Source: an uncultured Gammaproteobacteria bacterium (lineage in GTDB: Bacteria > Patescibacteriota > Microgenomatia > Daviesbacterales > UBA10151). From it: 30,400 bases of DNA. The notes under the pieces are model-generated. The model did not search any database. It saw only the letters and a list, made by a program, of their open reading frames with translations, and was not told the origin of the DNA. Positions 4,904-28,195 of this stretch are shown one piece after another. The first letter of the stretch is position 1, and each line of letters begins with the position of its first letter. The translations under genes and the position numbers were made by a program. Where the stretch lies: contig CAYHYM010000009.1 of assembly GCA_964360965.1 (NCBI GenBank), forward strand, positions 1-30,400, written 5' to 3'.

Positions 4904-6397
4904 ATGAAGATATTTGTTATAACGCTATTTCTCCTCTCATTTTTTTTAGTATTCAACTCCCCAGTCAAAGCCATAGTTGATCCCCTCTCTGTTCCTAACA
5001 ATAAATTTGGCATTCATATTATTCAAGCTACTCCTGATGAATCATCTCCGGCGGCCCAACTAGTCAACACCAACGGTGACTGGGGCTATATTACTTTTTT
5101 AATAGAATCCAAGGATAGAAATGAAAGTAAATGGCAGGAGTTTTTTAATGATCTAAGAAGAAAACATCTAATTCCGATTGTTAGGTTAGCCACCAAACCA
5201 GTTAATACTCACTGGGAAAGACCTTATGAAAAAGAGGGTGAAGCTTGGGCCCACTTTTTAGACAAATTAGTCTGGCCTACCAAAAACAGGTATATCATTA
5301 TCTATAATGAGCCAAATCATGCTCAAGAATGGGGAAATTTTACAGATCCTATTTCTTATGCCCATATTTTAAATGACACCATAGATACTCTAAAGAAAAA
5401 GTCTCCGGATTTTTATGTCTTAAATGCCGGTTTTGATGCTTCAGCCCCTCATCAACCACCTAGATTTTTTGATGAAGTAGTTTTTTTACAGGAAATGGAA
5501 AAGGCAGTACCGGGAATTTTTGAAAAATTAGATGGGTGGGTGTCACATTCCTATCCAAATCCGGAATTTTCCGGTTCTCCGGATGCTTTGGGGCGAGGCA
5601 CTGTTCGAACCTACGTTTGGGAACTACAGCAACTGCGTAATTTGGGTGTTTCGAAAAATTTGCCTGTTTTTATCACAGAAACCGGCTGGAAACATGCTGA
5701 AGGATTAACTTTTGAGCCTAGATTCCCTGCAGCAGATACTGTGGCCAGATATTACCAACAGGCTTTTGAAAATGCCTGGAACAGTTCCAGGATCATCGCC
5801 GTGACTCCATTTTTATTAAGCTATCAAGAGCCTTTATTTGCCCATTTTTCCTTTAAAGGACCCACCAATTCCGGACTATATTATCCTCAATATGACACCA
5901 TCAAAAACATGCCTAAAATTTCCGGCCAACCCATCCAGGAAAACAAGGCTACTTTAATCAAAGGTGAGGTCTTTTCATCCATTGTTTCAGGAGAAACTTA
6001 TACCATTTTTCTAACTTTCAAAAATAGCGGCCAATCAATCTGGAATGATGGCTCGCCTCGCTCCTCGCCTCGCGGCGAAGCGGGCGCGGGCGGAGCGGGG
6101 AAAAGGGTGGCTTTGGTGCCAATTGAAAGTGGCAGAGAATTGGGCATAGAACAGATATCCATTCCAGATGGGGTGCAAATTGAACCGGGCAAAGAATATA
6201 CCTTCCAAATTCAACTGAAAGCTCCGCTGAAGGGTATTTTTAAGGTTAGTTTGAATCTGTTTACCGGCAGCCACCCGTTTGATTCAAAACCACCGGTTAT
6301 TTTGCGCCTTTTAACTAAATTAAAATGGAGAAATTCTCCGGCCGGAGAATATATTTTAAGAACTATCGGCACCATAGGTGAATCTACTCAATTATAA
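4904..6397 (+). CDS. secreted clan GH-A-like glycoside hydrolase with C-terminal Ig-like domain
   Basis: Signal peptide MKIFVITLFLLSFFLVFNSPVKA. IIIYNEPNH (acid/base-type NEP motif) and VFITETGW (nucleophile-type TE motif). C-terminal beta-rich region carries a GC-rich insert. Confidence 0.5.
   Translation: MKIFVITLFLLSFFLVFNSPVKAIVDPLSVPNNKFGIHIIQATPDESSPAAQLVNTNGDWGYITFLIESKDRNESKWQEFFNDLRRKHLIPIVRLATKPVNTHWERPYEKEGEAWAHFLDKLVWPTKNRYIIIYNEPNHAQEWGNFTDPISYAHILNDTIDTLKKKSPDFYVLNAGFDASAPHQPPRFFDEVVFLQEMEKAVPGIFEKLDGWVSHSYPNPEFSGSPDALGRGTVRTYVWELQQLRNLGVSKNLPVFITETGWKHAEGLTFEPRFPAADTVARYYQQAFENAWNSSRIIAVTPFLLSYQEPLFAHFSFKGPTNSGLYYPQYDTIKNMPKISGQPIQENKATLIKGEVFSSIVSGETYTIFLTFKNSGQSIWNDGSPRSSPRGEAGAGGAGKRVALVPIESGRELGIEQISIPDGVQIEPGKEYTFQIQLKAPLKGIFKVSLNLFTGSHPFDSKPPVILRLLTKLKWRNSPAGEYILRTIGTIGESTQL
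6051..6100. repeat. GC-rich element (SPRSSPR..GEAGAGGAG family) in frame in the hydrolase gene
   Basis: GCTCGCCTCGCTCCTCGCCTCGCG+GCGAAGCGGGCGCGGGCGGAGCGGGG. Both blocks recur exactly in uvrA at 20723-20793 on the other strand. Confidence 0.8.
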
Positions 6398-6816: not shown

Positions 6817-6919
6817 TTGACAAGTAATAAATAGTATGGTTAAATATACTTACTTGTTAACCGAAAGGTTTACAAGTTCTCGAAGAAAGCCCCGCAAGGG
6901 GTTTTTTTCGTGGTAAAAT
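6817..6919 (+). repeat. 103-nt promoter-hairpin-terminator module, copy 1
   Basis: 102/103 identical to 8352-8454. Contains TTGACA-N17-TTAAAT, a 10-bp hairpin with GAAA loop, an intrinsic terminator, then TGgTAAAAT. Confidence 0.85.
6852..6908 (+). ncRNA. candidate ~55-nt small RNA (copy 1)
   Basis: Predicted start about 7 nt after TTAAAT (6840-6845). Hairpin CTTGTTAACC-GAAA-GGTTTACAAG (6853-6876). Terminator GCCCC-GCAA-GGGGT plus T-run (6886-6908). Confidence 0.35.
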
Positions 6920-8351: not shown

Positions 8352-8454
8352 TTGACAAGTAATAAATAGTATGGTTAAATATACTTACTTGTTAACCGAA
8401 AGGTTTACAAGTTCTCGAAGAAAGCCCCGCAAGGGGCTTTTTTCGTGGTAAAAT
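8352..8454 (+). repeat. 103-nt promoter-hairpin-terminator module, copy 2
   Basis: 102/103 identical to 6817-6919. The only difference is C versus T in the terminator stem. Ends 9 nt before tRNA-Arg. Confidence 0.85.
8387..8443 (+). ncRNA. candidate ~55-nt small RNA (copy 2)
   Basis: Same architecture as 6852-6908. Terminator GCCCC-GCAA-GGGGC followed by TTTTTT. Confidence 0.35.
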
Positions 8455-8463
8455 TAAACATAT

Positions 8464-8536
8464 GCGCCCGTAGTTTAATGGATAGAACGTGTGGCTTCGG
8501 ACCATAAGGTTGGGGGTTCGACTCCCTCCGGGCGCG
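8464..8536 (+). tRNA. tRNA-Arg(UCG)
   Basis: Acceptor GCGCCCG/CGGGCGC, anticodon stem TGTGG/CCATA, loop CT-TCG-GA, T arm GGGGG-TTCGACT-CCCTC. Confidence 0.8.
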
Positions 8537-9287: not shown

Positions 9288-10415
9288 TTAGGACCTTTTA
9301 GCGAGGGTTTTATTAAGATATTCTTCAAATTTATTTAGCGCTTCAGGCATATTTTCTCTACCAAATCCAATACGGAAATGCTTATTATCGTAATCATAAG
9401 CTGTAGAAGGTAGTAACATTATTCCAGCTTCTTGTACCACTCTTTGACAAAAATCAAAAGAATCTAAATCTCCTTCTATTTTTGGAAAAGCAATCGCTCC
9501 GGTCTTGGGCTTGACCCATGAAAATAAATTTTTGTATTTTTCAAAAAAGGTATCTAAAAGAGCAAGGTTTCTTTCTATCCTTTTAAGATGTTTTTCAATA
9601 ATCTTATCCTTTGCCCTTAGAGCTATTAAAGATAGAATTTCACTTGGAGCACTACTACAAATTGTGGTGTAATCTTTGAAAGTAGCCATTTTATTGTATA
9701 GCTCATTATCTTTAGTTACTAACCAACCTATACGAACACCAGCCATTCCAAAAGTTTTAGACATTCCAAATAAAACAACAGCTTTATCATAAATTTCGCA
9801 AGCAGAAGGTAATCTCTCTTCTGGGTTATATTCTAAAAAGCGATACATTTCATCTGAAAACACATAAAGGTTGTGTTGTTTTGCGAGATCAATAATCGCT
9901 TTAAAATCTTCTTTAGAAGGTAGATAACCAGTAGGGTTATGTGGAAAGTTTATGACTAATAATTTTGTATTGGGCTTAATGTTGTTTCGCAGAAAATCTA
10001 AATTGAATTGCCAACCTTTTGTTTCGTCGGGCTGCCATCTTGTAACTTCACAACCTATACCTTCTGCAATTTCATATAAAGATTGATAACCAGGAAATGT
10101 ACAGATAACATGATCTCCTTTTTCTAAAATGGAATTCAAACCAATAAATATTCCTTCTTCCGGTGCAGCTATAAGAACCTGATCTTGATTTATTCCCCGA
10201 TAAAGTTTTGCAACTTCAGCCCGCAGTAGCGGGTGGCCAAGTGATTCAGTATATCCTAAAGCTAAATCTTCCCATATTCTTTTTGTTTCATCGTCAGCAA
10301 GCTCTAAAACTTCTTTTTGTGAAAGCCCATCACAATCCGAACTTGAAAGCAGGTATTTAACAGAAAATTCATATTTTGCAAAATACCTCTCTAATTTAAA
10401 AGGTTGTAATTTCAT
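9288..10415 (-). CDS. class I/II PLP-dependent aminotransferase
   Basis: INFPHNPTG, FSDEMY, and SKTFGMAGVRIGW with the PLP lysine. Confidence 0.85.
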   Translation of the reverse strand: MKLQPFKLERYFAKYEFSVKYLLSSSDCDGLSQKEVLELADDETKRIWEDLALGYTESLGHPLLRAEVAKLYRGINQDQVLIAAPEEGIFIGLNSILEKGDHVICTFPGYQSLYEIAEGIGCEVTRWQPDETKGWQFNLDFLRNNIKPNTKLLVINFPHNPTGYLPSKEDFKAIIDLAKQHNLYVFSDEMYRFLEYNPEERLPSACEIYDKAVVLFGMSKTFGMAGVRIGWLVTKDNELYNKMATFKDYTTICSSAPSEILSLIALRAKDKIIEKHLKRIERNLALLDTFFEKYKNLFSWVKPKTGAIAFPKIEGDLDSFDFCQRVVQEAGIMLLPSTAYDYDNKHFRIGFGRENMPEALNKFEEYLNKTLAKRS

Positions 10416-13354: not shown

Positions 13355-14671
13355 TCATAGTAGCGCTTCCTTATTCCTTAGTTTTCTATGGAAAGTTAAG
13401 GCAAACCTGTGAGCTTCATCACGCAATTTTTGCAAAAGCTGCAAACTTAAGGATTTTTTGGAAAGTTTTATAATTCGAGCCTTGCGAGAATTACTCAGCG
13501 AAATTCGAGCCTTGCGAGAATTACTCAGTGAAGCGCTAATTTCTCCCTCCGGGGGATAGAGCCATTCCCTTCTTTTGGCCAGACCGAAGATGGGTAGATT
13601 GTGATTAGTAGTTTGTAGTTCGTAGTTTACCGCATTAACTTGTCCCTTGCCACCATCTACTATTATCAGATTAGGGATAGGCCAATCTTTGTGTTTTAAC
13701 CTTCTTCTGATCACTTCTCTCATCATTGCTACATCATTAGGTTTGCCGCTGAGGCGAATCTTAAATTTTCTATACTGTGATTTATCAATATCTCCCTCAT
13801 TTAAAACCACCATTGAACCTGTGGCATTTTTCCCTCCAATATTGGAGATATCATATCCTTCTATTCTTAAAGGTAAAGTTTTTAGATTTAAAACTTTTTT
13901 CAGCTCCTGCAGGGCCAAATTTTTTTGATCTTCGAAAAAATTAGAATTCTCCAAATAAGCCTGGACATTGTTTGGTTGAGTGAGATAATTTATTCCGTCT
14001 ATGATTTTTTTAAGTTTACTTGCTTCTTCAAACTTCTCTCTCTCTGATAGCTTTAACATATCCATTGTCAGTTCCTCAATTAATTTATCCTTTTTCCCGT
14101 CCATAAATTTTGAGAATCGGTTGATTATTTTGTTATAGTCTTCCTTGGAAATTAGCCCAACACAAACTCCTGGACATAATCCCAGATGATGATAAAAACA
14201 TGCTCGACGGGTTCGCAAGGCCAGGCCTTGCGAGGCTGAACACCAAGGGAAGACTTTCCTGAGTAGTTTGAGGGTGTTCCTAACAGTTCTAGCTGAAGGA
14301 AAAGGGCCAAAGAATTTTTTTACCCTTCTCAAATCTTGTTTTCTAAGAGTAATAACTTTGGGAAATTCTTCTTTGGTGATACCAATATATAAATAATCCT
14401 TATCATCTGTTAGTCTGACATTATATTTTGGCAAGTATTTTTTAATAAGACTCGCCTCTAAGATAAGCGCTTCCAACTCTGATGCAACAACAATAGTTTC
14501 AACTGAAGATATTGCAGAAGATAACATGGCTGTCTTTGCGCTCAGACCGAATCGGTTGCTGCGTGAAAAATATGAAGATATCCGATGGTATAAATTTATG
14601 GCTTTACCCACATAAATTACCTGACCATCTTTATTTTTAAAAATATATACCCCGGGTTTTTTGGGAAACAT
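13355..14671 (-). CDS. uvrC: excinuclease ABC subunit C, short form without (HhH)2 domain
   Basis: N-terminal GIY-YIG (PGVYIFKNKDGQVIYVGKA..LYHRISSYF), a UVR-like helix pair (EREKFEEASKLKKIIDGI), IEGYDISNIGG and RDEAHRFAL. The ORF stops about 20 aa after the last motif. Confidence 0.85.
   Translation of the reverse strand: MFPKKPGVYIFKNKDGQVIYVGKAINLYHRISSYFSRSNRFGLSAKTAMLSSAISSVETIVVASELEALILEASLIKKYLPKYNVRLTDDKDYLYIGITKEEFPKVITLRKQDLRRVKKFFGPFPSARTVRNTLKLLRKVFPWCSASQGLALRTRRACFYHHLGLCPGVCVGLISKEDYNKIINRFSKFMDGKKDKLIEELTMDMLKLSEREKFEEASKLKKIIDGINYLTQPNNVQAYLENSNFFEDQKNLALQELKKVLNLKTLPLRIEGYDISNIGGKNATGSMVVLNEGDIDKSQYRKFKIRLSGKPNDVAMMREVIRRRLKHKDWPIPNLIIVDGGKGQVNAVNYELQTTNHNLPIFGLAKRREWLYPPEGEISASLSNSRKARISLSNSRKARIIKLSKKSLSLQLLQKLRDEAHRFALTFHRKLRNKEALL
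13472..13531. repeat. 2 x 30-nt tandem duplication inside uvrC
   Basis: AATTCGAGCCTTGCGAGAATTACTCAG(C/T)GA twice, 29/30 identical. Encodes SLSNSRKARI twice. Confidence 0.85.
14203..14238. repeat. GC-rich palindrome inside uvrC
   Basis: CGCAAGGCC-A-GGCCTTGCG (14214-14232). Shares the GCCTTGCGAG core with the tandem unit at 13472-13531. Encodes ASQGLALRTR. Confidence 0.6.
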
Positions 14672-14673
14672 AA

Positions 14674-16665
14674 TTATTTATTCGAAGCAGGTTTTGCAAA
14701 ACGCCTTCTGTAGATAAGTGTTCCTAAAATGGCAAAGTATAAAACTGCCACCACTGCCACGAGTCCCAATGCAATCCAGGGAAAATTCTGTAGGATGAAA
14801 AATGGCCTGACCTTTATCTCATGTCGTTCCTTTATTCCTGCCACCTGAATCTCAATAACATCATCAAAGCTATCCAAAAGAGATTTAGTTCTGAGTTCAA
14901 ATTCAAACTGGGCAAATCCAAAGGAAGGTATTGGACCAGATTGGACAGCAGCCCCATTTAAAATGTTGACCTGTCCGGCATTGACAGATAAGTTTGATGA
15001 CGGAAGAGCGGCATTTCCCAAATTTTCTATTTTTATATTAATTTTATGGGGAAATCCTGCCAAAATTTGCTTTTTTACATCAATGATTAAATTGGGCTGC
15101 GGCTTTCCCAAAAAATCACTTTGTGATAGCTCCACTTTGACATCATGGCTGTCCATCCCGCTCAATTTATATGAGCCGGCAGGAACAGGCTGCTCTGATG
15201 ATGAACCTTTGATAACAAATACAAAATGATTTAAATCCAGCTTATTAAAATAATCAACTCCACCAGTGGTGTTTTGCCAGGTTGGATCAACCATTACCCA
15301 ACCTCGATTATCATCCCAATACTCAGGCCAGGCATGTAAAATGTCGCGAGACAAAGACAGCGGCCGCAACGCAAGATTGGTGGTATAGGCAAATCCGTCC
15401 AGCTCCCTGGCAGGGATCCCGGCAGCCCGGGTTAAGCTGATAAAAAGATCGGTAAATTCCATACAAACAGCAGAGGTTGGGTTATTTAAGGCTGTAACAG
15501 CGCCCAACCTTTCAATATTTTCATTGGAGAGCCTGGAAGTATCATATTGTAAAGTAGATATCACACTCTGATAAATTAGTTTTACCTTTTGCTCTGTTGA
15601 AGAGGGCTGATTAGTACTTAAGATTTCACTTAGTTTACTTTTAACTGTCGGGTGATCTTTTTCCCAATATTTTTGAGTGGTAGTATATTTTTGATAAAGA
15701 CCGGTCGGTAAGACTGGGTTTTTCACTTTTGTTAAGATATAAAGCTTGGCTGATCCGGTGGCCTTAACAGATAACTTTTGGGCTCTTTTCAGTTTATACC
15801 AGGCAAGATAATTACCATCCTCATCTAAAGTCACATTAATCGGCTTTGGCTCAATTCGCTGATAAATCACCTCCTGATAGGCTGTATCCGGAGGCAGGGC
15901 AATATTGGTGAGAACCGGTACCAGATTGGGATTTTCCAAATTATATGTCAAATTAAAATCATAAACTTGAAAACTGCCAAAAGTGGCGGAAACACCTGAT
16001 AATATCAACTGGTCTTTGTCAAATATTAAAAAGGTCCTGCCGGATGAGGTACTCTGTCGTTTTGGGGTGGGACTGATAATGGAAGGCGGACCAAAGCTTT
16101 GAGGAGTGGAAATTGTCAAATTATAACTTTGAAGACCGGGCGCTGATTGAATTTTGGGAGCGGATATTTCCCAGATTTTACCTAAATGCTGGGCAAAATC
16201 AGATGATTTAAAACTAAGGGTAAAAGGCTGCTCTTTTCCTACTCCCGCTATCTGCTGGTTAAACTTAACTGTGATAGAAGTTGAGGTATCTTTTTGCTCT
16301 GATGTCACCTCCATTAAGCCTCCTTGGTCTGAGGCTTTGATATCGGTAATTTGGGTGGCTCCAATAATAAGTTTAAACTGGCTGGCAAAATATTGACTGG
16401 TTAGATTCCTGAGGGTAATTTTTTCAGTAACTGAAGTTATTCCACTTAAGTCTATATCATAAGTTACATCATATGAGGTGGCAAAATCTTGTCCTGAGCT
16501 AGCTTGCCCTGAGCCTGTCGTACTTCGATTCCACTCAGTACGACCCTGAGTGTTAATCGAATGGGTCGAAGGGGTCGAAGGATCTTCGGCAGCAAAGACA
16601 GCAGTCAGTGAAAAGTAAAAAGTAAAAATTGAAAATATAACAGCCAGGAAAATTTTCTTGATCAT
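14674..16665 (-). CDS. transglutaminase-like cysteine-protease-fold surface protein
   Basis: Cys-His-Asp pattern: AVCMEFTDLF, ILHAWPEYW, WVMVDPTW. N-terminal signal peptide MIKKIFLAVIFSIFTFYFSLTAVFA and a C-terminal TM span. The ORF-track start at 16695 is possible but adds 10 non-signal residues. Confidence 0.75.
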   Translation of the reverse strand: MIKKIFLAVIFSIFTFYFSLTAVFAAEDPSTPSTHSINTQGRTEWNRSTTGSGQASSGQDFATSYDVTYDIDLSGITSVTEKITLRNLTSQYFASQFKLIIGATQITDIKASDQGGLMEVTSEQKDTSTSITVKFNQQIAGVGKEQPFTLSFKSSDFAQHLGKIWEISAPKIQSAPGLQSYNLTISTPQSFGPPSIISPTPKRQSTSSGRTFLIFDKDQLILSGVSATFGSFQVYDFNLTYNLENPNLVPVLTNIALPPDTAYQEVIYQRIEPKPINVTLDEDGNYLAWYKLKRAQKLSVKATGSAKLYILTKVKNPVLPTGLYQKYTTTQKYWEKDHPTVKSKLSEILSTNQPSSTEQKVKLIYQSVISTLQYDTSRLSNENIERLGAVTALNNPTSAVCMEFTDLFISLTRAAGIPARELDGFAYTTNLALRPLSLSRDILHAWPEYWDDNRGWVMVDPTWQNTTGGVDYFNKLDLNHFVFVIKGSSSEQPVPAGSYKLSGMDSHDVKVELSQSDFLGKPQPNLIIDVKKQILAGFPHKINIKIENLGNAALPSSNLSVNAGQVNILNGAAVQSGPIPSFGFAQFEFELRTKSLLDSFDDVIEIQVAGIKERHEIKVRPFFILQNFPWIALGLVAVVAVLYFAILGTLIYRRRFAKPASNK
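16491..16590. repeat. GC-rich composite element (CCTGAGC / GGTCGAAGG family) in frame near the N-terminus of the transglutaminase-like gene
   Basis: Contains CCTGAGC x3, GGGTCGAAGGGGTCGAAGG and the hairpin GTCGTAC-N14-GTACGAC. Encodes PSTPSTHSINTQGRTEWNRSTTGSGQASSGQD. Confidence 0.6.
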
Positions 16666-16749
16666 AATGTCATCCCAGAGAATACCGGGATCCATAAATA
16701 TTGTAGCAATTTTATTATGTCATTGCTAGCGAATGATGGAAAGCTAAAA

Positions 16750-16782
16750 TTTAGCTTGACACCTGAGAGGTGTAAACGTAAA
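16750..16782 (+). repeat. REP-like element upstream of the RAYT ORF
   Basis: TTTAGCTTGACACCTGAGAGGTGTAAACGTAAA with hairpin ACACCT-GAG-AGGTGT at 16759-16773. Exact inverted copy at 26126-26158. Confidence 0.85.
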
Positions 16783-16791
16783 ATAAATTTA

Positions 16792-17448
16792 ATGCCTGGA
16801 AGAAAAACTGTTTTTGAGAATGGATATTTTTATCATGTCTATAACCGGGGCTCTGAAAAAAGGGATATTTTTATAAAACCGCAAAATTATCAAAGATTCA
16901 TAAAAACTATGTACTATTATCAGTACGAGGGACCAAAACTAAGGCTTTCCCTACTAAATCAGGACGGATTCCAAAATTTTAAACCGGATCCCAGTAAGAA
17001 ATTAGTTGAAATTATCTGTTATTGCTTAATGCCTAACCACTTTCACATTCTAATAAAACAACTCAAAGAAAATGGAATTTCTAAATTTATTAGTCAATTA
17101 AGTAATAGCTACACCAAATATTTTAATACCAAATATAAACGTGTAGGAGCTTTATTCCAGGGTGTATTTCAGGCAGTTATTATTGAATCCGATGAACAGT
17201 TCATTCATACCTCCAGATATATTCATTTAAACCCGTCAGTATCAACCTTGGTAGAGAACCCTGCCAATTGGCCTTGGTCCTCTTATACCGAGTATGTTGA
17301 TAAGAAAAAGGGTATTTGTGTTAAAGAACCAATAATGAGTCATTTTCCTTCTGTGGAAGCTTACAAAAAATTTGTCTTGGATCAGCTTGATTACGGGAGG
17401 ATTCTCGAAATCTTAAAACACGGAGCCATTGATTATGATTACACCTGA
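16792..17448 (+). CDS. IS200/IS605-type Y1 (HUH) transposase, REP-associated tyrosine transposase (RAYT)-like
   Basis: YHVYNRG, the HUH motif MPNHFHILIK, and the catalytic-Tyr motif SRYIHLNP. Start set to ATG 16792, because the upstream TTG extension is made of REP sequence. The TGA stop lies inside a REP hairpin. Confidence 0.8.
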   Translation: MPGRKTVFENGYFYHVYNRGSEKRDIFIKPQNYQRFIKTMYYYQYEGPKLRLSLLNQDGFQNFKPDPSKKLVEIICYCLMPNHFHILIKQLKENGISKFISQLSNSYTKYFNTKYKRVGALFQGVFQAVIIESDEQFIHTSRYIHLNPSVSTLVENPANWPWSSYTEYVDKKKGICVKEPIMSHFPSVEAYKKFVLDQLDYGRILEILKHGAIDYDYT

Positions 17449-17457
17449 GAGGTGTAA
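17441..17457 (+). repeat. REP-like hairpin overlapping the RAYT stop codon
   Basis: ACACCTGAGAGGTGTAA is identical over 17 nt to 16759-16775 and in the same orientation. Confidence 0.8.
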
Positions 17458-17560
17458 GCCTCACACAAACTACTTCCGATCGAAAACAACTTGTCATGCG
17501 TACAGGCACATAAGGTCTCACCTTAGTTCAACGGTCGTGTTAACAATGTGATAAGTCCGT

Positions 17561-17579
17561 GCTGACACCTGAAAGATGG
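17561..17579 (+). repeat. degenerate REP-like copy
   Basis: GCTGACACCTGAAAGATGG compared with GCTTGACACCTGAGAGGTG. The second arm is decayed. Confidence 0.4.
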
Positions 17580-17589
17580 AAAGGTAAAT

Positions 17590-18177
17590 TTACCTTCTGA
17601 TTTTTTTTAGAATATGTGAAGCTAATCGAGTTAAGTCTCCAGCCAATAAGAATGCATGAATTCTAAGAACTTCTGCTAAGGTAGGTGTGAGTTCCTTTCT
17701 ATTCTCTCCCAACATTTCACCTAGTAGTTCGCTATCATAATAATACTGCTCACTGCGTACTCTTTCATAATCCACTCCATAGCCCGCTGCCTCCATTAAA
17801 TCAATAATCAGCAGACCTGGTAAGGGTAAACTTTCTGCCCAAGTATTAATAACCTCTTTGGGTGGAATAGTTTCAGTTTCACCATTTGCTCCCATTAAAT
17901 TCCATAACAACTCCAACTTTCCCTCTCCAATTCTTCTATCATGTTCTGCCAGAAATTCTTGATGTAATCCCCATATGGTAAGAACCGCCTCTTTAAAAAA
18001 GTCGGGAGTACCTATACTTGCCGCCAAAGAAGGATCACTCACTCTTCCTATTAAATAACGTTCCTTTACTTCTTCTGGAAATATTGAATGTTCAATTGAA
18101 TAAATAAATATTCGGTTGTGAAGTTCTATATATTTATCCCTAGCCAGCTGAAGCTGTTTAGAAATTTGTTCTTTCAT
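17590..18177 (-). CDS. hypothetical protein, apparently co-transcribed with uvrA
   Basis: 195-aa ORF whose ATG (18177) lies 2 nt after the uvrA stop (18180-18182). Helical and acidic, with no motif recognised. Confidence 0.5.
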   Translation of the reverse strand: MKEQISKQLQLARDKYIELHNRIFIYSIEHSIFPEEVKERYLIGRVSDPSLAASIGTPDFFKEAVLTIWGLHQEFLAEHDRRIGEGKLELLWNLMGANGETETIPPKEVINTWAESLPLPGLLIIDLMEAAGYGVDYERVRSEQYYYDSELLGEMLGENRKELTPTLAEVLRIHAFLLAGDLTRLASHILKKIRR

Positions 18178-18179
18178 AT

Positions 18180-21100
18180 TTATAGTATCTTTGCCAAATA
18201 TTGCCCTGTATAGGAGGATTTGATTTTGGATATATCTTTGGGGGTGCCTTCTGCAATAACTTGTCCGCCTTTATCCCCACCTTCCGGGCCTAAATCTATT
18301 ACCCAATCGGTATTTTTAATCACATCAAGATTGTGCTCTATAATCACCACAGTATTTCCATAGTTTACCAGCTTCCTTAAGATGGTTAATAACCTTTCTA
18401 TATCAGCAAAATGTAAACCGGTGGTGGGTTCGTCCAAAATATAAAGAGTGTGACCAGTTGGACGCTTAGATAATTCAGCAGAAAGTTTAATCCTTTGTGC
18501 CTCTCCACCAGACAGCGTGGGAGCTGGTTGGCCCAATTTTATATATCCCAATCCCACATCATTTAGTACTTGCAGTTTATTTTTGATATTGGGAATATTT
18601 TCAAAAAACTTTAAAGCTTCCTCAACAGTCATGTCCAAAACTTCAGAAATATTTTTATCCTTAAAGTGAATTTCCAAAGCCTCCCTGTTGTAGCGGGCAC
18701 CGTTGCAAGCCTCACAAGTCACATAAACATCCGGCAAAAACTGCATTTCAATTTTGAGCTGCCCTTCCCCTTCACAAACCTCACACCTTCCACCTTTGAC
18801 ATTAAAGGAAAACCTGCCTGGTCCATAACCCCTAATTTTAGCTTCAGTACTTTGGGCAAATAGGTCTCTGACAAAGGTAAAGGCTTCTGTATAGGTGGCC
18901 GGATTTGAGCGGGGAGTCCGGCCTATTGGTGATTGGTCTACCAAAACCACTTTATCCACATACTCTACCCCCTCCAGTTCTTTAAAAGCCCCTGGTCTTT
19001 CCTTGGATCTATAAATTTTTTGAGCTAACGCCTTATATAAGATGTCGTGAATTAAAGTAGATTTTCCGGATCCTGAAACCCCTGATATGGCTATAAACTG
19101 CCCTAAAGGAAAATCCACATTGATATTTTTTAAATTGTGTTGAGAAGCACCAAGAACCTTCAAAACATGATTGTCATTCCCGCGCAGGTCATCGACTCCG
19201 AGGTCGCTCAGACTCGAGGAGCGGGAATCTATTTTAATATTATTTATGGATCCCGTATCCCTTCGGCCTCGCTCAGGGCGGGCAAGTTCAGGATGACCGT
19301 GAACAGTCACTTTTTTCTTACCTGATAAATACTGTCCAGTTAAAGATGTAGTACTTTTTTTAATCTGATCCGGAGTGCCTGTGGTTACTATCTCCCCACC
19401 ATGTTCACCAGCTCCTGGCCCAATTTCAATTAATAGATCTGCATTCTCCATCATCTCTGCATCATGCTCATTAACTATCACTGTATTTCCCAAATCTCTT
19501 AATTTTTTTAAAGTTTCAATTAATCTTGAGTTATCTCTTTGGTGTAAACCAATAGAAGGCTCATCTAAAACATACAAAACTCCGGATAAACCCGAACCAA
19601 TTTGGGAGGCCAGCCTGATTCTTTGTGATTCTCCCCCGGCTAAGGTCATAGCAGCGCGATCCAGCGTTAAATAATCCAAACCAACATCAATTAAGAACTT
19701 AACTCTGGCTTGGATTTCTTTTAAAATAGGTTTGGCAATTTGAGTTTCACGATCATTTAAAATAGATTCTATCACTTCACTACGTTTCGCTCCAGAATGA
19801 CTATTCCCCAATCTTTTAATCCATTCCAAAGCCTCTTTAATAGATTGTGTCACCACTTCTGCAATATTTAATCCATCAATGGTTATTGACAAGGCTTCAT
19901 CTTTAAGTCTTGCTCCATGACACTTAGGACAAATCTCTTTAACCATATATTTTTCTATTTCCCTTTTCACATAATCAGATTCGGATTCTTGATATCTTTG
20001 TTTTAGGTATGAAACCAAACCTTGAAAGCTAGATTTAAAATGAGTCCATCTTCCCTCTCTGTTTCTTCCTTCCACTCTAAATTCTTCGTCCCCAGCACCA
20101 TTAAGTAGCACATTTCTGGCTTTCTCAGATAATTCACCCAGTCTGGTATTTAAATCAAAACCGTAAACTTTGCCTACTGACTGAATAAGTCTTGAGAACC
20201 AGGTTTCATGAGTGGCTAACTTTTGCCATGGTAAAATTCCACCTTCTGCAATAGATAAAATGGGGTTTAAAACCATTTCCGGATCAATTTCCAAAAGTGA
20301 TCCTAAACCATGGCAGGTAGGACAAGCTCCATGAGGAGAATTAAAAGAAAATAGTCTTGGTTCCACCTCGGATAAGGCAATATTGTCAACCGGACAGGCA
20401 AATCTTTCAGAATAAAGATGATCGTCCATTTTCTTGGGATTTTGGGGAAATTCTAAAGAAGCGTCCAGGACTTCAGAAACAATCACGGATCCTTCACCTA
20501 ATTTGAGCGCTGTCTCGATGGATTGGGAGAGCCTGTTTATAATGTCATTCCCGCGCATGCGGGAATCCAATTCCGAACGTGACTTTGTTAATTGGATCCT
20601 CCTCGAGTCTGAGCGACCTCGGAGTCGAAGACCTGCCTTCGCAGGGATAACAGACTTATCCAATATGAGTCTGTCCACTACTGCATCGATAGTATGCTTA
20701 TTAGTTTTAATCAACACTAAATCCCCCGCTCCGCCCGCGCCCGCTTCGCCGCGCCCTGCGTCGCCGGAGGCGCGAGGCGAGGAGCGAGGCGAGTCTGTTA
20801 AGTCTCTAATTTGTCCATCAACCCTAACCTTTGAAAAACCTTTTTTCCTCAAATCTTCAAAAAGTTGGAAATATTCTCCTTTTCTGTCTTTAACCACAGG
20901 AGCCAAAATCATTATTCTTCTCGAAGACCCTGAGCGAGACTTCGACGGTGAGTCTTTCGACCCTGAGCTCAAGACCGAAGGGCTCAGTCGAACCGCGTAG
21001 CGAGTCGAAGGGTTCCCTACCACTTGTTCCACAATTTGTTCTACTGACATTCTACTAATCTCCCTTCCACAAATTGGACAATGGGGATGGCCAACCCTGG

Positions 21101-21443
21101 CAAATAAAAGCCTTAAATAATCATAGACCTCAGTAGTTGTTCCCACAGTAGAACGTGGATTATGTGAAACACCTTTTTGGTCAATAGAGATGGCCGGGGA
21201 TAAACCCTCAATATAATCAACATCAGGCTTGTCCATTACCCCTAAAAACTGCCTGGCATAAGCAGATAAAGATTCCACATATCTTCTTTGACCTTCTGCA
21301 TAAAGGGTATCAAAAGATAAAGAAGACTTGCCGGAACCGGAAATCCCCGTTAAAACCACCAACTTGTTCTTGGGAATTTCCAGATCAATATTCTTGAGGT
21401 TATGCTCTCTCGCCCCTTTTATAATAATCTTATCTATAGCCAT
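18180..21443 (-). CDS. uvrA: excinuclease ABC subunit A, expanded by in-frame insertions
   Basis: GISGSGKSSL and GVSGSGKSTL Walker A motifs. Two LSGGE signatures (LAGGESQRIRLA, LSGGEAQRIKLS). Zinc modules CPxC...CxxCxG. 1087 aa. Confidence 0.95.
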   Translation of the reverse strand: MAIDKIIIKGAREHNLKNIDLEIPKNKLVVLTGISGSGKSSLSFDTLYAEGQRRYVESLSAYARQFLGVMDKPDVDYIEGLSPAISIDQKGVSHNPRSTVGTTTEVYDYLRLLFARVGHPHCPICGREISRMSVEQIVEQVVGNPSTRYAVRLSPSVLSSGSKDSPSKSRSGSSRRIMILAPVVKDRKGEYFQLFEDLRKKGFSKVRVDGQIRDLTDSPRSSPRASGDAGRGEAGAGGAGDLVLIKTNKHTIDAVVDRLILDKSVIPAKAGLRLRGRSDSRRIQLTKSRSELDSRMRGNDIINRLSQSIETALKLGEGSVIVSEVLDASLEFPQNPKKMDDHLYSERFACPVDNIALSEVEPRLFSFNSPHGACPTCHGLGSLLEIDPEMVLNPILSIAEGGILPWQKLATHETWFSRLIQSVGKVYGFDLNTRLGELSEKARNVLLNGAGDEEFRVEGRNREGRWTHFKSSFQGLVSYLKQRYQESESDYVKREIEKYMVKEICPKCHGARLKDEALSITIDGLNIAEVVTQSIKEALEWIKRLGNSHSGAKRSEVIESILNDRETQIAKPILKEIQARVKFLIDVGLDYLTLDRAAMTLAGGESQRIRLASQIGSGLSGVLYVLDEPSIGLHQRDNSRLIETLKKLRDLGNTVIVNEHDAEMMENADLLIEIGPGAGEHGGEIVTTGTPDQIKKSTTSLTGQYLSGKKKVTVHGHPELARPERGRRDTGSINNIKIDSRSSSLSDLGVDDLRGNDNHVLKVLGASQHNLKNINVDFPLGQFIAISGVSGSGKSTLIHDILYKALAQKIYRSKERPGAFKELEGVEYVDKVVLVDQSPIGRTPRSNPATYTEAFTFVRDLFAQSTEAKIRGYGPGRFSFNVKGGRCEVCEGEGQLKIEMQFLPDVYVTCEACNGARYNREALEIHFKDKNISEVLDMTVEEALKFFENIPNIKNKLQVLNDVGLGYIKLGQPAPTLSGGEAQRIKLSAELSKRPTGHTLYILDEPTTGLHFADIERLLTILRKLVNYGNTVVIIEHNLDVIKNTDWVIDLGPEGGDKGGQVIAEGTPKDISKIKSSYTGQYLAKIL
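19173..19297. mobile_element. TIR MITE-like element in uvrA with nested insertions
   Basis: The GTCATTCCCGCGCAG..GCGGGAATC end is split by a 33-nt element at 19188-19220. The GGATCC..TCAGGATGAC end contains a CTGAGCG/CCGAAGG-type segment at about 19254-19287. Confidence 0.65.
20544..20651. mobile_element. TIR MITE-like element in uvrA with one nested 33-nt insertion
   Basis: Intact end GTCATTCCCGCGCATGCGGGAATCCAATT. The other end, ATTGGATCC|CTGCCTTCGCAGGGATAAC, is split by TCCTCGAGTCTGAGCGACCTCGGAGTCGAAGAC (20600-20632). 108 nt, 36 codons. Confidence 0.75.
20723..20793. repeat. GC-rich element (SPRSSPR..GEAGAGGAG family) in frame in uvrA
   Basis: Reverse complement is CTCGCCTCGCTCCTCGCCTCGCG + 21 extra nt + GCGAAGCGGGCGCGGGCGGAGCGGGGG. 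The 23-nt and 26-nt blocks are identical to 6052-6100. Confidence 0.8.
20920..21013. repeat. GC-rich composite element (CCTGAGC / GTCGAAGG family) in frame in uvrA
   Basis: Contains CCCTGAGCGAGAC, CCCTGAGCTCAAGACCGAAGGGCTCAG and GCGAGTCGAAGGG. Encodes about 30 residues (STRYAVRLSPSVLSSGSKDSPSKSRSGSS) where canonical UvrA has a short linker. Confidence 0.65.
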
Positions 21444-21461
21444 AGTTTATAATCCCTTCGG

Positions 21462-21571
21462 GTCCGAGCTCTTCGAGTCCGAGCTCTTCGAGTCCGAGCC
21501 TCAGAGTCGAGGACCTCAGAGTCGAGGACCTCAGGGTCGAAGACCTGAGCGACCGAAGGGAGTCGAAGGAC
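21462..21571. repeat. GC-rich ~15-nt-period tandem array in the uvrA 5' region
   Basis: Units all start GTC(C)GA: GTCCGAGCTCTTCGA x2, GTCCGAGCCTCAGA, GTCGAGGACCTCAGA, GTCGAGGACCTCAGG, GTCGAAGACCTGAGCGACCGAAGGGA, GTCGAAGGAC. Confidence 0.8.
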
Positions 21572-21758: not shown

Positions 21759-23771
21759 TTAAATACTTAACTCTTTTATTTGATCTCTAAGGCGGGCTGC
21801 TTCTTCAAAATCTAATATTTCTGCTGCTTGGTGCATTTGTTCCTCTAAATTTCCGATCATTTTCTGCCTCTCATTAACTGGTATATCTTCTATAGTTAAT
21901 TCTTTTTTACCCAATTTTTCCTCTATTTCTTCAACTTTCTCAATAAGTCTTTCCCTCAAAGCTTTTTCAATGCTTCTGGGTTTTATGTTATGCTTTTTAT
22001 TATATTCCATCTGGTACTTTCTTCTTCTGTCTACCTCCTCAATTGCTGACTTCATAGATTTGGTCATATTATCTGCATACATAATTACTTGCCCCTTAAC
22101 ATGTCTGGCAGCCCTGCCCATGGTTTGGATCAAAGAAGTTTTGCTTCTTAAAAAACCCTCTTTATCCGCATCCAAAATAATTACCAAAGTTACTTCAGGC
22201 AAATCCAATCCTTCCCTTAAAAGATTAATTCCCACAATCACATCATATTCACCTAATCTTAAAGACTGGAGAATATCAGATCTTTTTAAAGTTTCTATAT
22301 CAGAATGTAAGTAATTTACTTTAATGCCTCTCTCTTTTAGATAATCAGTCAAATCTTCTGCCATTCTTTTGGTAAGTGTAATAATTAGCACCCGTTCTCT
22401 ACGTTCCACCCTTTTTTCCACCTCAGAAATGATATCCTGAATCTGTCCTTGTGTAGGTCTGACAGAAACTTGAGGATCAAAAATGCCTGTAGGTCTGATA
22501 AGCTGCTCTGCTATCCCACACCCGGTGTGGGTTTGAGTTGACACACCGGGTGTGTGTCCTGAACAGGCCAAACTTATCTCATACTCATCCGGAGTTGCTG
22601 AAGCATAAATTACCTGATTAATTTTTCTCTGAAACTCATCAAATCTTAAGGGTCTATTATCCAAAGCAGAAGGAAGCCTGAAACCAAACTCAATCAAAGT
22701 TTCTTTTCTGGAACGGTCTCCGTTGTACATCCCACGCAGTTGGGGCAAAGTGATGTGGGACTCATCAATAATCAATAAAAAATCTTCAGGAAAATATTCC
22801 ATTAAAGTATACGGAGGGTCACCTTCTTTTCTGCCTTCAAAATATCTGGAATAATTTTCTATCCCATTACAATAACCGAATTCCTTAATCATCTCCAGAT
22901 CATAATAAGTTCTTTGTTCCAGTCTCTGAGCTTCTACTAATTTGCCTTGTTTTCTTAAATCTTTAATCCTAAATCTTAAATCTTCTTCTATTTGTTTTAT
23001 AGCAGGCAACATTCTGGACTCCGGAGTAATATAGTGTTTGGCAGGATAGATGGTTAAGGTTTGAGGGGTTGGGGTAGCAACACCAGTCAAAGGATCCAAG
23101 TGCGAAATTCTCTCTATCTTATCTCCTAAAAATTCTACTCTGACAGCTTGTTCCAAATAAGCAGGGAAAATATCTATAGTGTCTCCCTTAACTCTGTAGG
23201 TAGATCTTTTAAAATCCAAGTCATTTCTTGAATAAAACATCTTTTGAAGCATTTTAAGAATCGTCTGGAAACCTGTTCTTACCCCCATCTTTAGCTCTAA
23301 AATTGCCCCGCCATATTCAGCGGGAGATCCCAAATTGTAGATACAAGAAACTGAGGCGACCACTATCACATCTTTTCTGGTCATTAAAGAAGTCGTTGCA
23401 GAAAGGCGCAATTTTTCTATCTCTTCATTAATATTGGTCTCTTTTTCAATATATGTATCTGATTGGGGTACATAAGCCTCAGGCTGATAATAATCATAAT
23501 AAGATACAAAATACTCGCAAGCATTTTTGGGAAATAAAGACCTAAATTCTTGAGCTAGCTGTCCTGCTAAAGTTTTATTGTGGGAAATAACCAAAGTGGG
23601 TCTTTGCACTTTCTGGATCACATTGGCCATGGTAAAGGTTTTACCGGATCCAGTCACACCCAGTAGTACCTGATGTTCTTGTCCAGAATTAAGCCCGGAA
23701 ACAAGCTTCTCAATAGCTTGAGGTTGGTCACCTGTAGGTTTGAATTCAGAAATAATCTTAAATTTTGCCAT
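21759..23771 (-). CDS. uvrB: excinuclease ABC subunit B
   Basis: FKPTGDQPQAI, Walker A GVTGSGKTFT, DESH box (IIDESHITLPQ), helicase motifs, and a C-terminal UVR domain (LDFEEAARLRDQIKEL). Start set to ATG 23771 (MAKFKIISEFKP). The track start at 23780 is a TTG. Confidence 0.95.
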   Translation of the reverse strand: MAKFKIISEFKPTGDQPQAIEKLVSGLNSGQEHQVLLGVTGSGKTFTMANVIQKVQRPTLVISHNKTLAGQLAQEFRSLFPKNACEYFVSYYDYYQPEAYVPQSDTYIEKETNINEEIEKLRLSATTSLMTRKDVIVVASVSCIYNLGSPAEYGGAILELKMGVRTGFQTILKMLQKMFYSRNDLDFKRSTYRVKGDTIDIFPAYLEQAVRVEFLGDKIERISHLDPLTGVATPTPQTLTIYPAKHYITPESRMLPAIKQIEEDLRFRIKDLRKQGKLVEAQRLEQRTYYDLEMIKEFGYCNGIENYSRYFEGRKEGDPPYTLMEYFPEDFLLIIDESHITLPQLRGMYNGDRSRKETLIEFGFRLPSALDNRPLRFDEFQRKINQVIYASATPDEYEISLACSGHTPGVSTQTHTGCGIAEQLIRPTGIFDPQVSVRPTQGQIQDIISEVEKRVERRERVLIITLTKRMAEDLTDYLKERGIKVNYLHSDIETLKRSDILQSLRLGEYDVIVGINLLREGLDLPEVTLVIILDADKEGFLRSKTSLIQTMGRAARHVKGQVIMYADNMTKSMKSAIEEVDRRRKYQMEYNKKHNIKPRSIEKALRERLIEKVEEIEEKLGKKELTIEDIPVNERQKMIGNLEEQMHQAAEILDFEEAARLRDQIKELSI
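22515..22558. repeat. pair of REP-like hairpins inside uvrB
   Basis: CCCACAC-CCG-GTGTGGG (22515-22531) and TTGACACAC-CGG-GTGTGTGTC (22538-22558). Encodes SGHTPGVSTQTHTGCG in frame. Confidence 0.7.
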
Positions 23772-23779
23772 GACAGCCA

Positions 23780-23788
23780 ATTATATCA
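23780..23788 (-). promoter_or_regulatory. candidate extended -10 promoter of uvrB (TGaTATAAT), near-leaderless
   Basis: On the minus strand TGATATAAT ends at 23780 and the ATG at 23771 starts 9 nt after the hexamer. No SD is present. Confidence 0.4.
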
Positions 23789-25688: not shown

Positions 25689-26366
25689 ATGCTATACATT
25701 ATTCCCACTCCCATAGGTAATTTAAAAGATATCACTTTAAGAGCACTTGAAGTTTTAAAAGAGGTGGATTCTATAATTTGTGAAGACACCAGAAGAACTG
25801 GATTACTTCTTAATCATTACCAGATTAAAAAGCCTCTTTTGGTATTGAACGATTACAACGAAGCAAAAATCCTGGATTCCACTATAGAGCGGCTCAGAGC
25901 TGGAGAGAATCTTGCTTTAGTGTCTGATGCAGGTACCCCACTTATTTCTGATCCAGGATATAAACTGGTCAGAGAGTGTTTCCACCAGGGGATTCCGGTT
26001 GATTCCCTCCCGGGTCCTTCTTCTGTTATCACAGCTTTAACACTTTCCGGTCTTCCTCCTGATAAATTTTTATTTCTAGGATATTTACCGGAAAAGCTTG
26101 GTCACAGAAAAACTTTACTAGAAACTTTACGTTTACACCTCTCAGGTGTCAAGCTAAACCCAACTTATATTTTATATATAGCTCCCCATAAACTGATCAA
26201 AACTCTCGCTGAGATGAAAGAAGTTTTTGGGGATATTGAAGTAGTTTTAGCCCATGAATTAACTAAAATCCATCAAAGTGTGGAAAAGAAAAAAATAAGT
26301 GAATGGCTGGAAACATTAAAAAATCCAAAGGGAGAGTATATATTACTATTCAACAAGGGGTGGTAA
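25689..26366 (+). CDS. rsmI: 16S rRNA (cytidine1402-2'-O)-methyltransferase
   Basis: LYIIPTPIGNLKDITLRALEVL, IICEDTRRTG, VSDAGTPLISDPG. Carries a 33-nt REP insertion in frame. Confidence 0.85.
   Translation: MLYIIPTPIGNLKDITLRALEVLKEVDSIICEDTRRTGLLLNHYQIKKPLLVLNDYNEAKILDSTIERLRAGENLALVSDAGTPLISDPGYKLVRECFHQGIPVDSLPGPSSVITALTLSGLPPDKFLFLGYLPEKLGHRKTLLETLRLHLSGVKLNPTYILYIAPHKLIKTLAEMKEVFGDIEVVLAHELTKIHQSVEKKKISEWLETLKNPKGEYILLFNKGW
26126..26158 (-). repeat. REP-like element, 11 in-frame codons inside rsmI
   Basis: TTTACGTTTACACCTCTCAGGTGTCAAGCTAAA is the exact reverse complement of 16750-16782 (33/33). Confidence 0.9.
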
Positions 26367-26666: not shown

Positions 26667-28195
26667 ATACTTTTCCTTAGTATAACTCTATTTTCTGCAT
26701 TATACAACAAATCTTTTGCACTATTTGCCTCATATCTTTCCACCACCACCCCATAAACTCCCCTCTCCACCAAAAATTCCAACACTTCAGGATATAAAGC
26801 CAAACTTCCATAAGTTATAAACGGTATCTTAGATTTATGTAATAGTTTTAACCCATCCTCCATAAATTTTAATAAACCACTCACTTCGTTTTTGTAAAAC
26901 ATCAAATCCTCCTGTGTGGTGTCGAATCCATTTAAATGAGCTATCAGTTCATCCAGGTTTAACACCACTCCATCCAAACCAGCTACCAGATAATCCTCCA
27001 AATTAACAATATTTTCCGGTACAGCTACTTCCAGCCAAAGCTGTAAGGAGTTTTTTCTGGACAACTTTTTAACAGCCAGTTCTCTTTTAATTTGTAAAAA
27101 CTCCCCAACTCCTCTAACAAACGGAATAACTATGTGAATATTATTTATGCCTTTTTTAAGACTGCCATCTGGCAGTCGCAATTTATGCTTATGCCTTATA
27201 AAATCAGCTGCATCCACCATGGGCTGGAAAAGACTCTGTTGATGCAAAAGCCTTAATGTCCCCCTGACTTTACCCATCCCCTCTGATTTATCAGCCAGTT
27301 TAAATAAAATGGGAGAACTTGGAAAAGTTGCGGCAGATTCCACCAATCTAAAAACCAAATCCTCAAAAGAATCTCTTACGTTATTTAGATCAAATATTTT
27401 CTCAGAAGCAATATAGATTCCATCAACTGCCCTTTCCACTACCAATCCCGTAGATAAATCCAAAAAGACTTTCACGGCACTTAATACCTTAGGTGTCCTA
27501 TCTGGACCACCTCCCAGGTGTATGTCCACACCGGGTGTGTGGTAGCTTGACACCCCGGGGTGGGTATAGGGCTTAATTCCAACAATTTTAACTCCCCTAT
27601 CAACAATCCATTCATACTGATGAGGTATAAACAACTTTTTATTAGCTTCTCTGACTATCTCATCCAATTTTTTCAAATCATTAGGAGCAAGTTTCCCCCA
27701 TTTGACATTAATCACAGTATCATCCAGTATGGGATCAAAATAAGCTAACCCTAAGCTCCCTACCTTTTTTACAAAAGTTACCACCTGAGGCTCCAAATTC
27801 TCTGTAATGCCCTGATAAAAACCCTCTTTCCAAAGTCTAGCTTTAGTCTGTTCCAGCCATAACTCAAGAAGCGTAAGCCAAAGATTTTTGATGGATTTAA
27901 TCTGTACTCCATTTAATAAGAAATGGTTGTGGTTGCCAACCTCTTTTTTCAAAATTACAGGGATAGGTGTGGAATTTATTTCTTTTTTTACCAGGGTTAA
28001 GCTTTGCTCAAAAATTTCCTTTGATCCAAAATCGTAATGCTCAAGGATTGTTTTAAGATGTAAATCAGGCGGGGTAACCACTATTCCTGCTCCCACCGGC
28101 AAGATTGTCCGTGCCAGTTTCCCCAAAGCCACATTTAACTGGCCAAAAATTGGGAAATCTTCATCCAGTAAAACTTTTATGGGCAGAATCTCCAT
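26663..28195 (-). CDS. PEP-utilising-enzyme (PpsA/PPDK TIM-barrel)-like protein
   Basis: HIVIPFVRGVGEFLQIKREL and LWLEVAVPENI...AGLDGVVLNLDELIAHLNGFD resemble the PEP-utilising TIM-barrel blocks. Carries a cluster of three REP-like hairpins in frame. Confidence 0.45.
   Translation of the reverse strand: MEILPIKVLLDEDFPIFGQLNVALGKLARTILPVGAGIVVTPPDLHLKTILEHYDFGSKEIFEQSLTLVKKEINSTPIPVILKKEVGNHNHFLLNGVQIKSIKNLWLTLLELWLEQTKARLWKEGFYQGITENLEPQVVTFVKKVGSLGLAYFDPILDDTVINVKWGKLAPNDLKKLDEIVREANKKLFIPHQYEWIVDRGVKIVGIKPYTHPGVSSYHTPGVDIHLGGGPDRTPKVLSAVKVFLDLSTGLVVERAVDGIYIASEKIFDLNNVRDSFEDLVFRLVESAATFPSSPILFKLADKSEGMGKVRGTLRLLHQQSLFQPMVDAADFIRHKHKLRLPDGSLKKGINNIHIVIPFVRGVGEFLQIKRELAVKKLSRKNSLQLWLEVAVPENIVNLEDYLVAGLDGVVLNLDELIAHLNGFDTTQEDLMFYKNEVSGLLKFMEDGLKLLHKSKIPFITYGSLALYPEVLEFLVERGVYGVVVERYEANSAKDLLYNAENRVILRKSI
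27508..27562. repeat. cluster of three REP-like hairpins inside the PEP-enzyme-like gene
   Basis: CACCT-CCC-AGGTG (27508-27520), CACAC-CGG-GTGTG (27527-27539), and GCTTGA-CACCCCGGGGTG (27545-27562). Encodes HPGVSSYHTPGVDIHLGGG. Confidence 0.7.

Follow-up and report, generated by a model that had tools for sequence, protein, structure and literature searches.

The window analysed here is a whole contig of 30.4 kb, belonging to a metagenome-assembled genome (MAG) from Hainich groundwater (well H51). The closest named relatives of its proteins are from Candidatus Daviesbacteria, members of the Microgenomates within the Candidate Phyla Radiation (CPR). The window contains a gene for an HUH/Y1 single-strand DNA endonuclease/transposase, referred to below as the Y1 gene, with a short hairpin at either end. 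This is probably a domesticated RAYT-type gene within a REPtron/TIRtron-like unit, in which the enzyme would recognise the flanking hairpins on single-stranded DNA and would occasionally copy or convert them elsewhere. The bracketing of the gene by stem-matched, co-varying hairpins is what argues for such a unit. A known system is thereby extended to a lineage and an enzyme subclass without an earlier description; among the papers searched, none linked RAYT or REP to the CPR or Patescibacteria.

The features that carry this reading are as follows. Related genomes and loci are denoted by L numbers.

16750-16782, plus strand: upstream 33-nt imperfect palindromic element, TTTAGCTTG-ACACCTGAGAGGTGT-AAACGTAAA
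16792-17448, plus strand: gene for a RAYT-like HUH/Y1 single-strand DNA endonuclease/transposase of 218 aa (profile, motifs, fold, dN/dS)
17439-17457, plus strand: second hairpin copy, TTACACCTGAGAGGTGTAA, with an 8-bp stem; conserved in L004 (loop GAA) and L007 (stem CCACCT)
17563-17595, plus strand: decayed copy of the 33-nt element, corresponding to the ancestral downstream hairpin of L008, L009 and L106; a remnant is present in L104

The Y1 protein and the hairpins at both ends of its gene

The assignment of ORF 16792-17448 to the Y1/HUH enzymes of RAYT type rather than IS200 type is supported by the Y1_Tnp score, the YIHLNP tyrosine motif and a fold nearest to that of TnpAREP (4ER8). A profile search against Pfam Y1_Tnp (PF01797), proposed in an earlier reading of the letters alone (the sequence-only reading), gave 38.4 bits, above the gathering threshold of 23. 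The same reading had recognised an IS200/RAYT motif set in the ORF, and this set is both present and conserved in homologues. The HuH motif NHFH occupies residues 82-85 and the catalytic Tyr143 lies within RYIHLNP. Among 20 homologues, NHFH, LFQG, RYIHLNP and WSSY are invariant or nearly so, with no variation in the HuH motif and Y-x-x-x-N-P. As a motif match only and not as a phylogenetic placement, NHFH, LFQG, YIHLNP and WSSY fit the signature of TnpAY1 subclass 2.1, which is NH[YF]H, FQ, Y[IV]HLNP and an SS tail (Table 1, PMC6006769). Subclass 2.1 (Quentin et al. 2018) is equivalent to RAYT Group 1 (Bertels et al. 2017) and to most TIRYT/TIRtrons (Di Nocera et al. 2013). The score against the canonical RAYT model, the NCBIfam equivalog NF047646 REP_Tyr_transpos, is 59.5 bits, under the cut-off of 80.

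The AlphaFold2 model of the protein (pLDDT 82.5) has a helical C-terminal tail of ~70 aa, and no Bac_DnaA_C, HTH_23 or HTH_28 C-terminal domain was found in a Pfam search with E up to 1. The top Foldseek match of the model in the PDB is 4ER8, the E. coli TnpAREP with its REP hairpin (E 1.1e-6, TMt 0.67). The TnpA proteins of IS608 and ISDra2 are the next matches.

Between the window and the closest orthologue, the ratio of nonsynonymous to synonymous substitution rates (dN/dS) is 0.086 at a dS of 0.93. Purifying selection is therefore strong and the Y1 gene is functional. Homologues number in the thousands, of ~217 aa each, and the protein type forms about 1,500 clusters at 50% identity in metagenomes. 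The public gene call is a 243-aa ORF starting at 16717; this longer ORF was rejected and the start placed at 16792, as every homologue begins with MPGR.

The hairpin has the form ACACCT-GAG-AGGTGT. The 17-mer that contains it, ACACCTGAGAGGTGTAA, is found exactly at 16759-16775 (plus strand), 17441-17457 (plus strand) and 26133-26149 (minus strand), with relatives at 17565-17581 (three mismatches) and 3386-3402 (two mismatches). Exact and degenerate forms give six matches in the window against 0.02 expected, and the looser core CACCT-N3-AGGTG gives seven against 0.55. The upstream copy at 16759-16775 is where the sequence-only reading had placed it, but the distance of 19 nt to the ATG needs correction, since the hairpin proper (16759-16773) stops 18 nt short of it. 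The claim of a second copy that contains the stop codon was borne out: the TGA lies at 17446-17448, and both this stop and the last sense codon of the Y1 gene are provided by the second hairpin. No terminator-like T-run follows it. The decayed third copy is also real. It shares 83% identity with the copy in rsmI over 17563-17591 and continues to about 17595, and its folding has been lost. In the relatives that retain this ancestral downstream hairpin, it is preceded by CGTGCGG.

Judged by loop sequence, the flanking hairpins of the window are in direct orientation, in agreement with the earlier claim. GT[AG]G is absent from the 5' hairpin foot, where TTG or ATT precedes the stem. A TAGCTTG tag is conserved in some copies, with its TAG triplet 4 nt from the stem. 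A near-consensus promoter overlaps the upstream element (TTGACA at 16756-16761, a 17-nt spacer and TAAAAT at 16779-16784; 11/12 consensus matches), so that the hairpin sits in the -35/-10 spacer. The same arrangement is found in L004, L007, L108 and L008. The ATG follows the -10 hexamer by 7 nt, which would imply a leaderless Y1 mRNA, and the hairpin may be an autoregulatory site. Assembly artefact was rejected as a source of the repeats, as both 33-mers recur in independent assemblies of three replicate samples. A duplicated 5' element in L004 was discarded as a scaffolding artefact, lying beside a run of N.

In five other Daviesbacteria genome lineages, a Y1 orthologue of 59-86% identity is found between Transglut_core/uvrC and uvrA-uvrB-lexA-rsmI (L004-L006 86%, L007 64%, L008 62%, L009 60%, L106 59%). 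The orthologue of L108 is nearby rather than at the same position, following a rearrangement. The gene had been proposed to be single copy, and this holds per locus. Conserved position with one copy per locus is the pattern of a domesticated gene and not of an active insertion sequence (IS).

Every orthologue has one hairpin 10-45 nt before the ATG and a second that overlaps the stop or lies at most ~20 nt beyond it. The stems are matched within each genome: ACACCT/AGGTGT in the window, L004 and L108, CCACCT/AGGTGG in L007, and CAACCT/AGGTTG in L008, L009 and L106. The differences between genomes are compensatory changes, made at the 5' and 3' hairpins alike. That the flanking elements are strongly constrained is apparent from the comparison with L004, in which the 35-nt upstream block TAGCTTG...AAAATAA is identical to that of the window even though synonymous sites are near saturation. 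The T-G (U-G) wobble pairs in the hairpins of L008, L009 and L106 are confined to the coding strand. In L104, the RsmI of which is closest to that of the window (81%), the Y1 gene is missing from the site and a decayed hairpin remnant, GTGCGGACACCTGGAAGATG, is left (L104 1384-1860). The RsmI of L104 retains an H-L-E-G-A-KLN insert despite the absent Y1 gene.

Within the L004-L006 group, L005/L010 is a related MAG (GCA_964362265.1, CAYIDT010000015.1) that carries the 86%-identical orthologue in a gene order common with the Daviesbacteria loci. For these two reasons its title, ‘uncultured Gammaproteobacteria bacterium’, is probably a mislabel.

The association between hairpin and protein extends to more distant homologues. 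A further 80 metagenome loci were fetched, with homologues at 35-59% identity, and together with the window, L007, L008 and L009 these gave 74 loci with both flanks. The same 5-nt hairpin arm is present on both sides of the gene in 50 of the 74, compared with 7.1% of cross-locus pairs and 0.1% of shuffled flanks. The type of arm tracks the identity of the protein: xACCY/CACC-type arms occur in 21 of the 27 matched loci at or above 43% identity and in 4 of the 23 below it. Arms near the more distant proteins include GAGGT, AGGGT, CAAGG, AGAAGC and others. In most of the other loci the hairpin lies ~40-45 nt 5' of the ATG, outside the promoter spacer. Across 458 kb of homologue loci, and leaving aside the hairpins at the gene itself, the density per arm is 0.47 per 10 kb for cognate arms and 0.085 for non-cognate ones, a ~5-fold excess.

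Copies within coding sequences and the gene neighbourhood

The sequence-only reading had noted related hairpins inside coding sequences elsewhere in the window. The four core matches away from the Y1 gene do all fall within ORFs, and the extra copies were intragenic and in frame in each of the three Daviesbacteria genomes checked (window, L009, L106). The reading frame of the inserts is CAC-CTN-NNA-GGT-G, which encodes H-L-x-G-V. Dispersed copies are often inverted doublets that fold as a single long hairpin. Those of the window are:

26126-26158, minus strand: perfect 33-nt copy of the upstream element in rsmI; in-frame LRLHLSGVKLN, in a loop of variable length among orthologues
3386-3426: inverted doublet CACCTCCGAGGTG ... 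CACCTCGGAGGTG in the dinB-like ORF; folds as single-stranded DNA into one 13-bp hairpin, REPIN-like
22517-22554: inverted doublet CACACCCGGTGTG ... CACACCGGGTGTG in uvrB; encodes HTPGVSTQTHTGC
27508-27563: cluster of related hairpins CACCTCCCAGGTG, ACACCGGGTGT and TAGCTTGACACCCCGGGGTG in a PEP-utilising-enzyme-like ORF; segment variable among orthologues

The rsmI copy is 100% identical, on the opposite strand, to the upstream element of the Y1 gene. Of 120 RsmI orthologues, many have the H-L-x-G-V-KLN segment, at times doubled or tripled, and many lack it. A simple 33-nt insertion into rsmI was rejected, as the net gain over L007 and L008 is only 2 aa and the loop is already variable. Concerted evolution of gene flank and rsmI within a genome was likewise rejected as a general rule; it describes the window (33/33 nt) and fails in L106 and in L108/L105. 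The minus strand of the rsmI copy also contains TTGACA, a 17-nt spacer and TAAAGT, a sequence that could act as an antisense promoter inside rsmI.

The folding energy of the dinB doublet is -15.7 kcal/mol (z -5.9). The uvrB insertion has no counterpart in the L007 and L008 orthologues and takes another form in L009. In uvrA, doublets occupy one site in both L009 (~9296-9335) and L106 (~5000-5040), with loops CCG/CGG and GGG/CCC, respectively. The loops are complementary within each doublet, so that the long hairpin is preserved in both genomes.

The Y1 gene lies in a DNA-repair neighbourhood, with uvrC, uvrA, uvrB, lexA and dinB all within the window. It is followed by a 195-aa ORF and then uvrA. 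The neighbouring genes are:

3058-4446: dinB (dinB-like ORF)
13355-14671: uvrC
14674-16695: transglutaminase-core protein (Transglut_core)
18180-21443: uvrA
21759-23780: uvrB, followed by lexA
25689-26366: rsmI

No tnpB-like ORF was found near the Y1 gene among the ORFs of the window. An Rfam search of the window returned tRNAs only, with no known RNA family for the hairpins.

Several other repeats are present. A second GC-rich palindromic family, TGTCATTCCCGCGCATGCGGGAATCCA, is unrelated in sequence to the Y1-flanking hairpins and is found at 3957-3992 and 4016-4045 (dinB), 16659-16694 (5' end of ORF 14674-16695) and 20534-20572 (uvrA). Its in-frame peptides are of the VIPANAGIQ / SFPRMRES type, and it explains an insertion of ~30 aa in dinB that solved DinB structures lack. 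A third GC-rich repeat, CGCGGCGAAGCGGGCGCGGGCGGAGCGGGG + CTCGCCTCGCTCCTCGCCTCGCG, encodes low-complexity peptides of the SPRSSPRGEAGAGGAG type. It is inverted and perfectly conserved between two unrelated genes, at 6052-6100 (ORF 4904-6397) and 20724-20793 (uvrA). A fourth family, GACCTCGGAGTCGAAGACCTG, forms a 38-nt inverted pair in uvrA (19184-19221 and 20599-20636) and also tandem 15-nt units at 21460-21570, in the uvrA-uvrB intergenic region upstream of uvrA. At 1087 aa, UvrA (18180-21443) is longer than its counterparts in five related genomes (970-993 aa), and the difference corresponds to several repeat-encoded low-complexity inserts. A 103-nt direct repeat of 99% identity precedes tRNA-His (6817-6919, tRNA at 7004) and tRNA-Arg (8352-8454, tRNA at 8464). 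A tandem 30-nt duplication in uvrC (13472-13531) encodes SLSNSRKARI twice.

Competing explanations

In the proposed mechanism, the Y1 enzyme would bind the hairpin on single-stranded DNA, such as the lagging-strand template or repair gaps, and would cut and rejoin beside it. Through this activity the flanking copies would stay in step with the enzyme, and now and then copies elsewhere would be seeded or converted. A candidate trace of such an event is the 33/33-nt identity between the 5' flank and the insert in rsmI. In the Daviesbacteria clade, the upstream element would also serve as the promoter of the gene, and the downstream element would give the stop codon.

Several observations weigh against a unit of this kind. 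The cutting and moving of hairpins by the Y1 enzyme is drawn by analogy from TnpAREP and IS608 biochemistry. Subclass 2.1 has been reported, in two large surveys, to lack REP-like hairpins nearby, with only modest frequencies of flanking 16-mers. The flank and the rsmI insert are mismatched in L106 (CAACCT vs ACACCC) and in L108/L105 (ACACCT vs AACCT), so that constant homogenisation by the enzyme is not the general case. An extra cognate copy is absent from 24 of the 37 homologue loci longer than 3 kb. Calls of direct or inverted orientation are weak because the elements are near-palindromic, and the loop-based calls across the wider family are mixed (23 direct, 15 inverted, 6 both, 8 ambiguous). 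Copy number also appears low. The exact 17-mer had 14 matches in a scan of 185,579 species genomes, a collection without the source genome and with one related genome. The related MAG holds it once, as the 5' flank of its own Y1 gene, and another Microgenomates genome has one intergenic copy; the remaining matches, outside these two genomes, are probably due to chance.

The best placed of the alternatives, itself unlikely, holds that the hairpins are cis-regulatory parts of one gene, with a promoter/operator at the 5' end and an mRNA stabiliser or terminator at the 3' end. There would be no transposition-like dynamics, and the rsmI copy would be the result of ordinary gene conversion or an old conserved coding motif. 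The near-consensus promoter with the hairpin in its spacer, conserved in L004, L007, L108 and L008, fits this explanation, as do the U-G wobble pairs on the coding strand only (L008, L009, L106) and the few extra copies. The RsmI H-L-x-G-V-KLN insert is also widespread, being inherited in many Daviesbacteria. However, regulation of a single gene leaves unexplained the two-ended hairpins of 50 out of 74 divergent loci, which are locus-specific and track the protein, and the inverted doublets at other sites. The 33/33-nt identity is similarly unaccounted for, as rsmI orthologues of ~80% identity carry different versions. The stop-codon hairpin has no terminator-like T-run, and in most other loci the upstream hairpin stands ~40-45 nt before the ATG and not in a promoter spacer.

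It is highly unlikely that the gene is an autonomous IS200/IS605-type insertion sequence fixed at the site, with the hairpins as its left-end and right-end subterminal structures. The hairpins do lie on the same strand and in the same orientation by loop, as in IS608; the protein is a Y1_Tnp and its next-best folds are the TnpA of IS608 and ISDra2. The best fold is nonetheless TnpAREP, and the tyrosine motif is the class 2 Y-x-x-x-N-P and not the Y-x-x-x-Q of IS200. There is no tnpB next to the gene, each locus has one copy, and near-identical paralogues are not among the homologue matches. Orthologues of 59-86% identity occupy the same position, and with a dS of about 0.93 between the two closest this points to long vertical residence.

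That the palindromes are operators of a host regulator, for example LexA SOS boxes, is barely credible: the hairpins cluster amid nucleotide-excision-repair/SOS genes (uvrC, uvrA, uvrB, lexA, dinB), but a hairpin was looked for upstream of lexA itself and none was found, most copies are in frame in the middle of coding regions, and the hairpin sequence is locus-specific, following the Y1 protein and not a conserved regulator.

Comparison with known systems and significance

Canonical RAYT/REP systems belong to subclasses 2.2 and 2.5 (Groups 2 and 3). Their repeats are extragenic and abundant (above ~100 copies per genome), and the flanks are classically inverted. The sequence-only reading had taken the arrangement in the window as the defining RAYT/REP one. 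Cognate hairpins do bracket the gene, but a canonical pair is not supported, because the NCBIfam score is below the cut-off and the hairpin foot has no GT[AG]G.

The closest parallel in fold is the E. coli TnpAREP/REPtron (Nunvar 2010; Ton-Hoang 2012; Messing 2012, PDB 4ER8). Both have a single-copy HUH/Y1 gene with Y-x-x-x-N-P, inherited vertically and bracketed by hairpins that the enzyme recognises (presumptively so in the window), and both have REPIN-like inverted doublets. The Daviesbacteria protein differs in scoring under the NCBIfam RAYT cut-off, and the hairpins differ in the absence of GT[AG]G and in their shorter stems of 5-8 bp with 3-nt loops. The flanks are direct by loop, the apparent copy number is low and the extra copies are intragenic, not extragenic.

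The features shared with subclass 2.1/Group 1/TIRYT are the motif signature, low copy number, the possession of own flanking repeats, some of them self-complementary, and dispersed repeat families that are moderately abundant or absent. TIRYT terminal inverted repeats share GGGGWSAS; this is lacking from the flanks described here, which are instead short xACCY-N3-RGGTx hairpins. The protein also differs from subclass 2.1 in that a DnaA_C/HTH-type C-terminal domain was not detected by Pfam, and in being shorter (218 aa; median 238). The host differs as well, being a CPR lineage with a very small genome. The subclass surveys covered complete genomes without CPR representatives, and their non-IS Y1 genes were mostly in large genomes.

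Similarity to the TnpA of IS200/IS608/ISDra2 is seen in the HUH/Y1 fold, the same-strand hairpins near both gene ends and a presumed single-strand DNA mechanism. The differences are the Y-x-x-x-N-P motif in place of Y-x-x-x-Q, a position conserved over deep divergence, and the lack of tnpB and of a multi-copy signature.

Both REPs inside uvrA/uvrB and REPs that provide a stop codon are already known from other phyla. The Daviesbacteria palindromes and dimers resemble intragenic REPs and the palindromic elements of Rickettsia (Ogata 2000; Di Nocera 2013) in lying in frame in housekeeping genes, in particular uvrA and uvrB, and in providing adjacent ORFs with stop codons. They belong to another repeat family. 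No dedicated transposase goes with Rickettsia palindromic elements or CGTC REPs, whereas here a candidate cognate enzyme gene lies within the same 30 kb with the element at both its ends.

A wider reading is possible but doubtful. Across much of the CPR, a domesticated subclass-2.1 RAYT might maintain low-copy cognate palindromes, which would survive chiefly where they add in-frame loops to housekeeping and DNA-repair proteins (RsmI, UvrA, UvrB, DinB) because the genomes are nearly without intergenic space. The enzyme would then be a long-term generator of protein length variation. With the element also acting as promoter and stop codon of the enzyme gene, the whole might form a self-contained autoregulated unit within the nucleotide-excision-repair/SOS cluster.

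RAYT/REPIN is the main example of a transposase kept by its hosts over millions of years, and most documented cases are from large-genome Proteobacteria. Here, co-variation over dozens of loci links a protein of subclass-2.1 type, a type that corresponds to the largest RAYT group (Group 1), with hairpins of its own. Its gene has kept one position beside excision-repair genes, in a lineage of very small genome size. Should the enzyme indeed act on the hairpins, the two would constitute a compact and directly testable enzyme-substrate pair (218 aa, 33 nt). The REPIN-RAYT idea would then reach the Candidate Phyla Radiation, and there would be a possible explanation for part of the short in-frame insertions by which conserved proteins of CPR organisms are enlarged.

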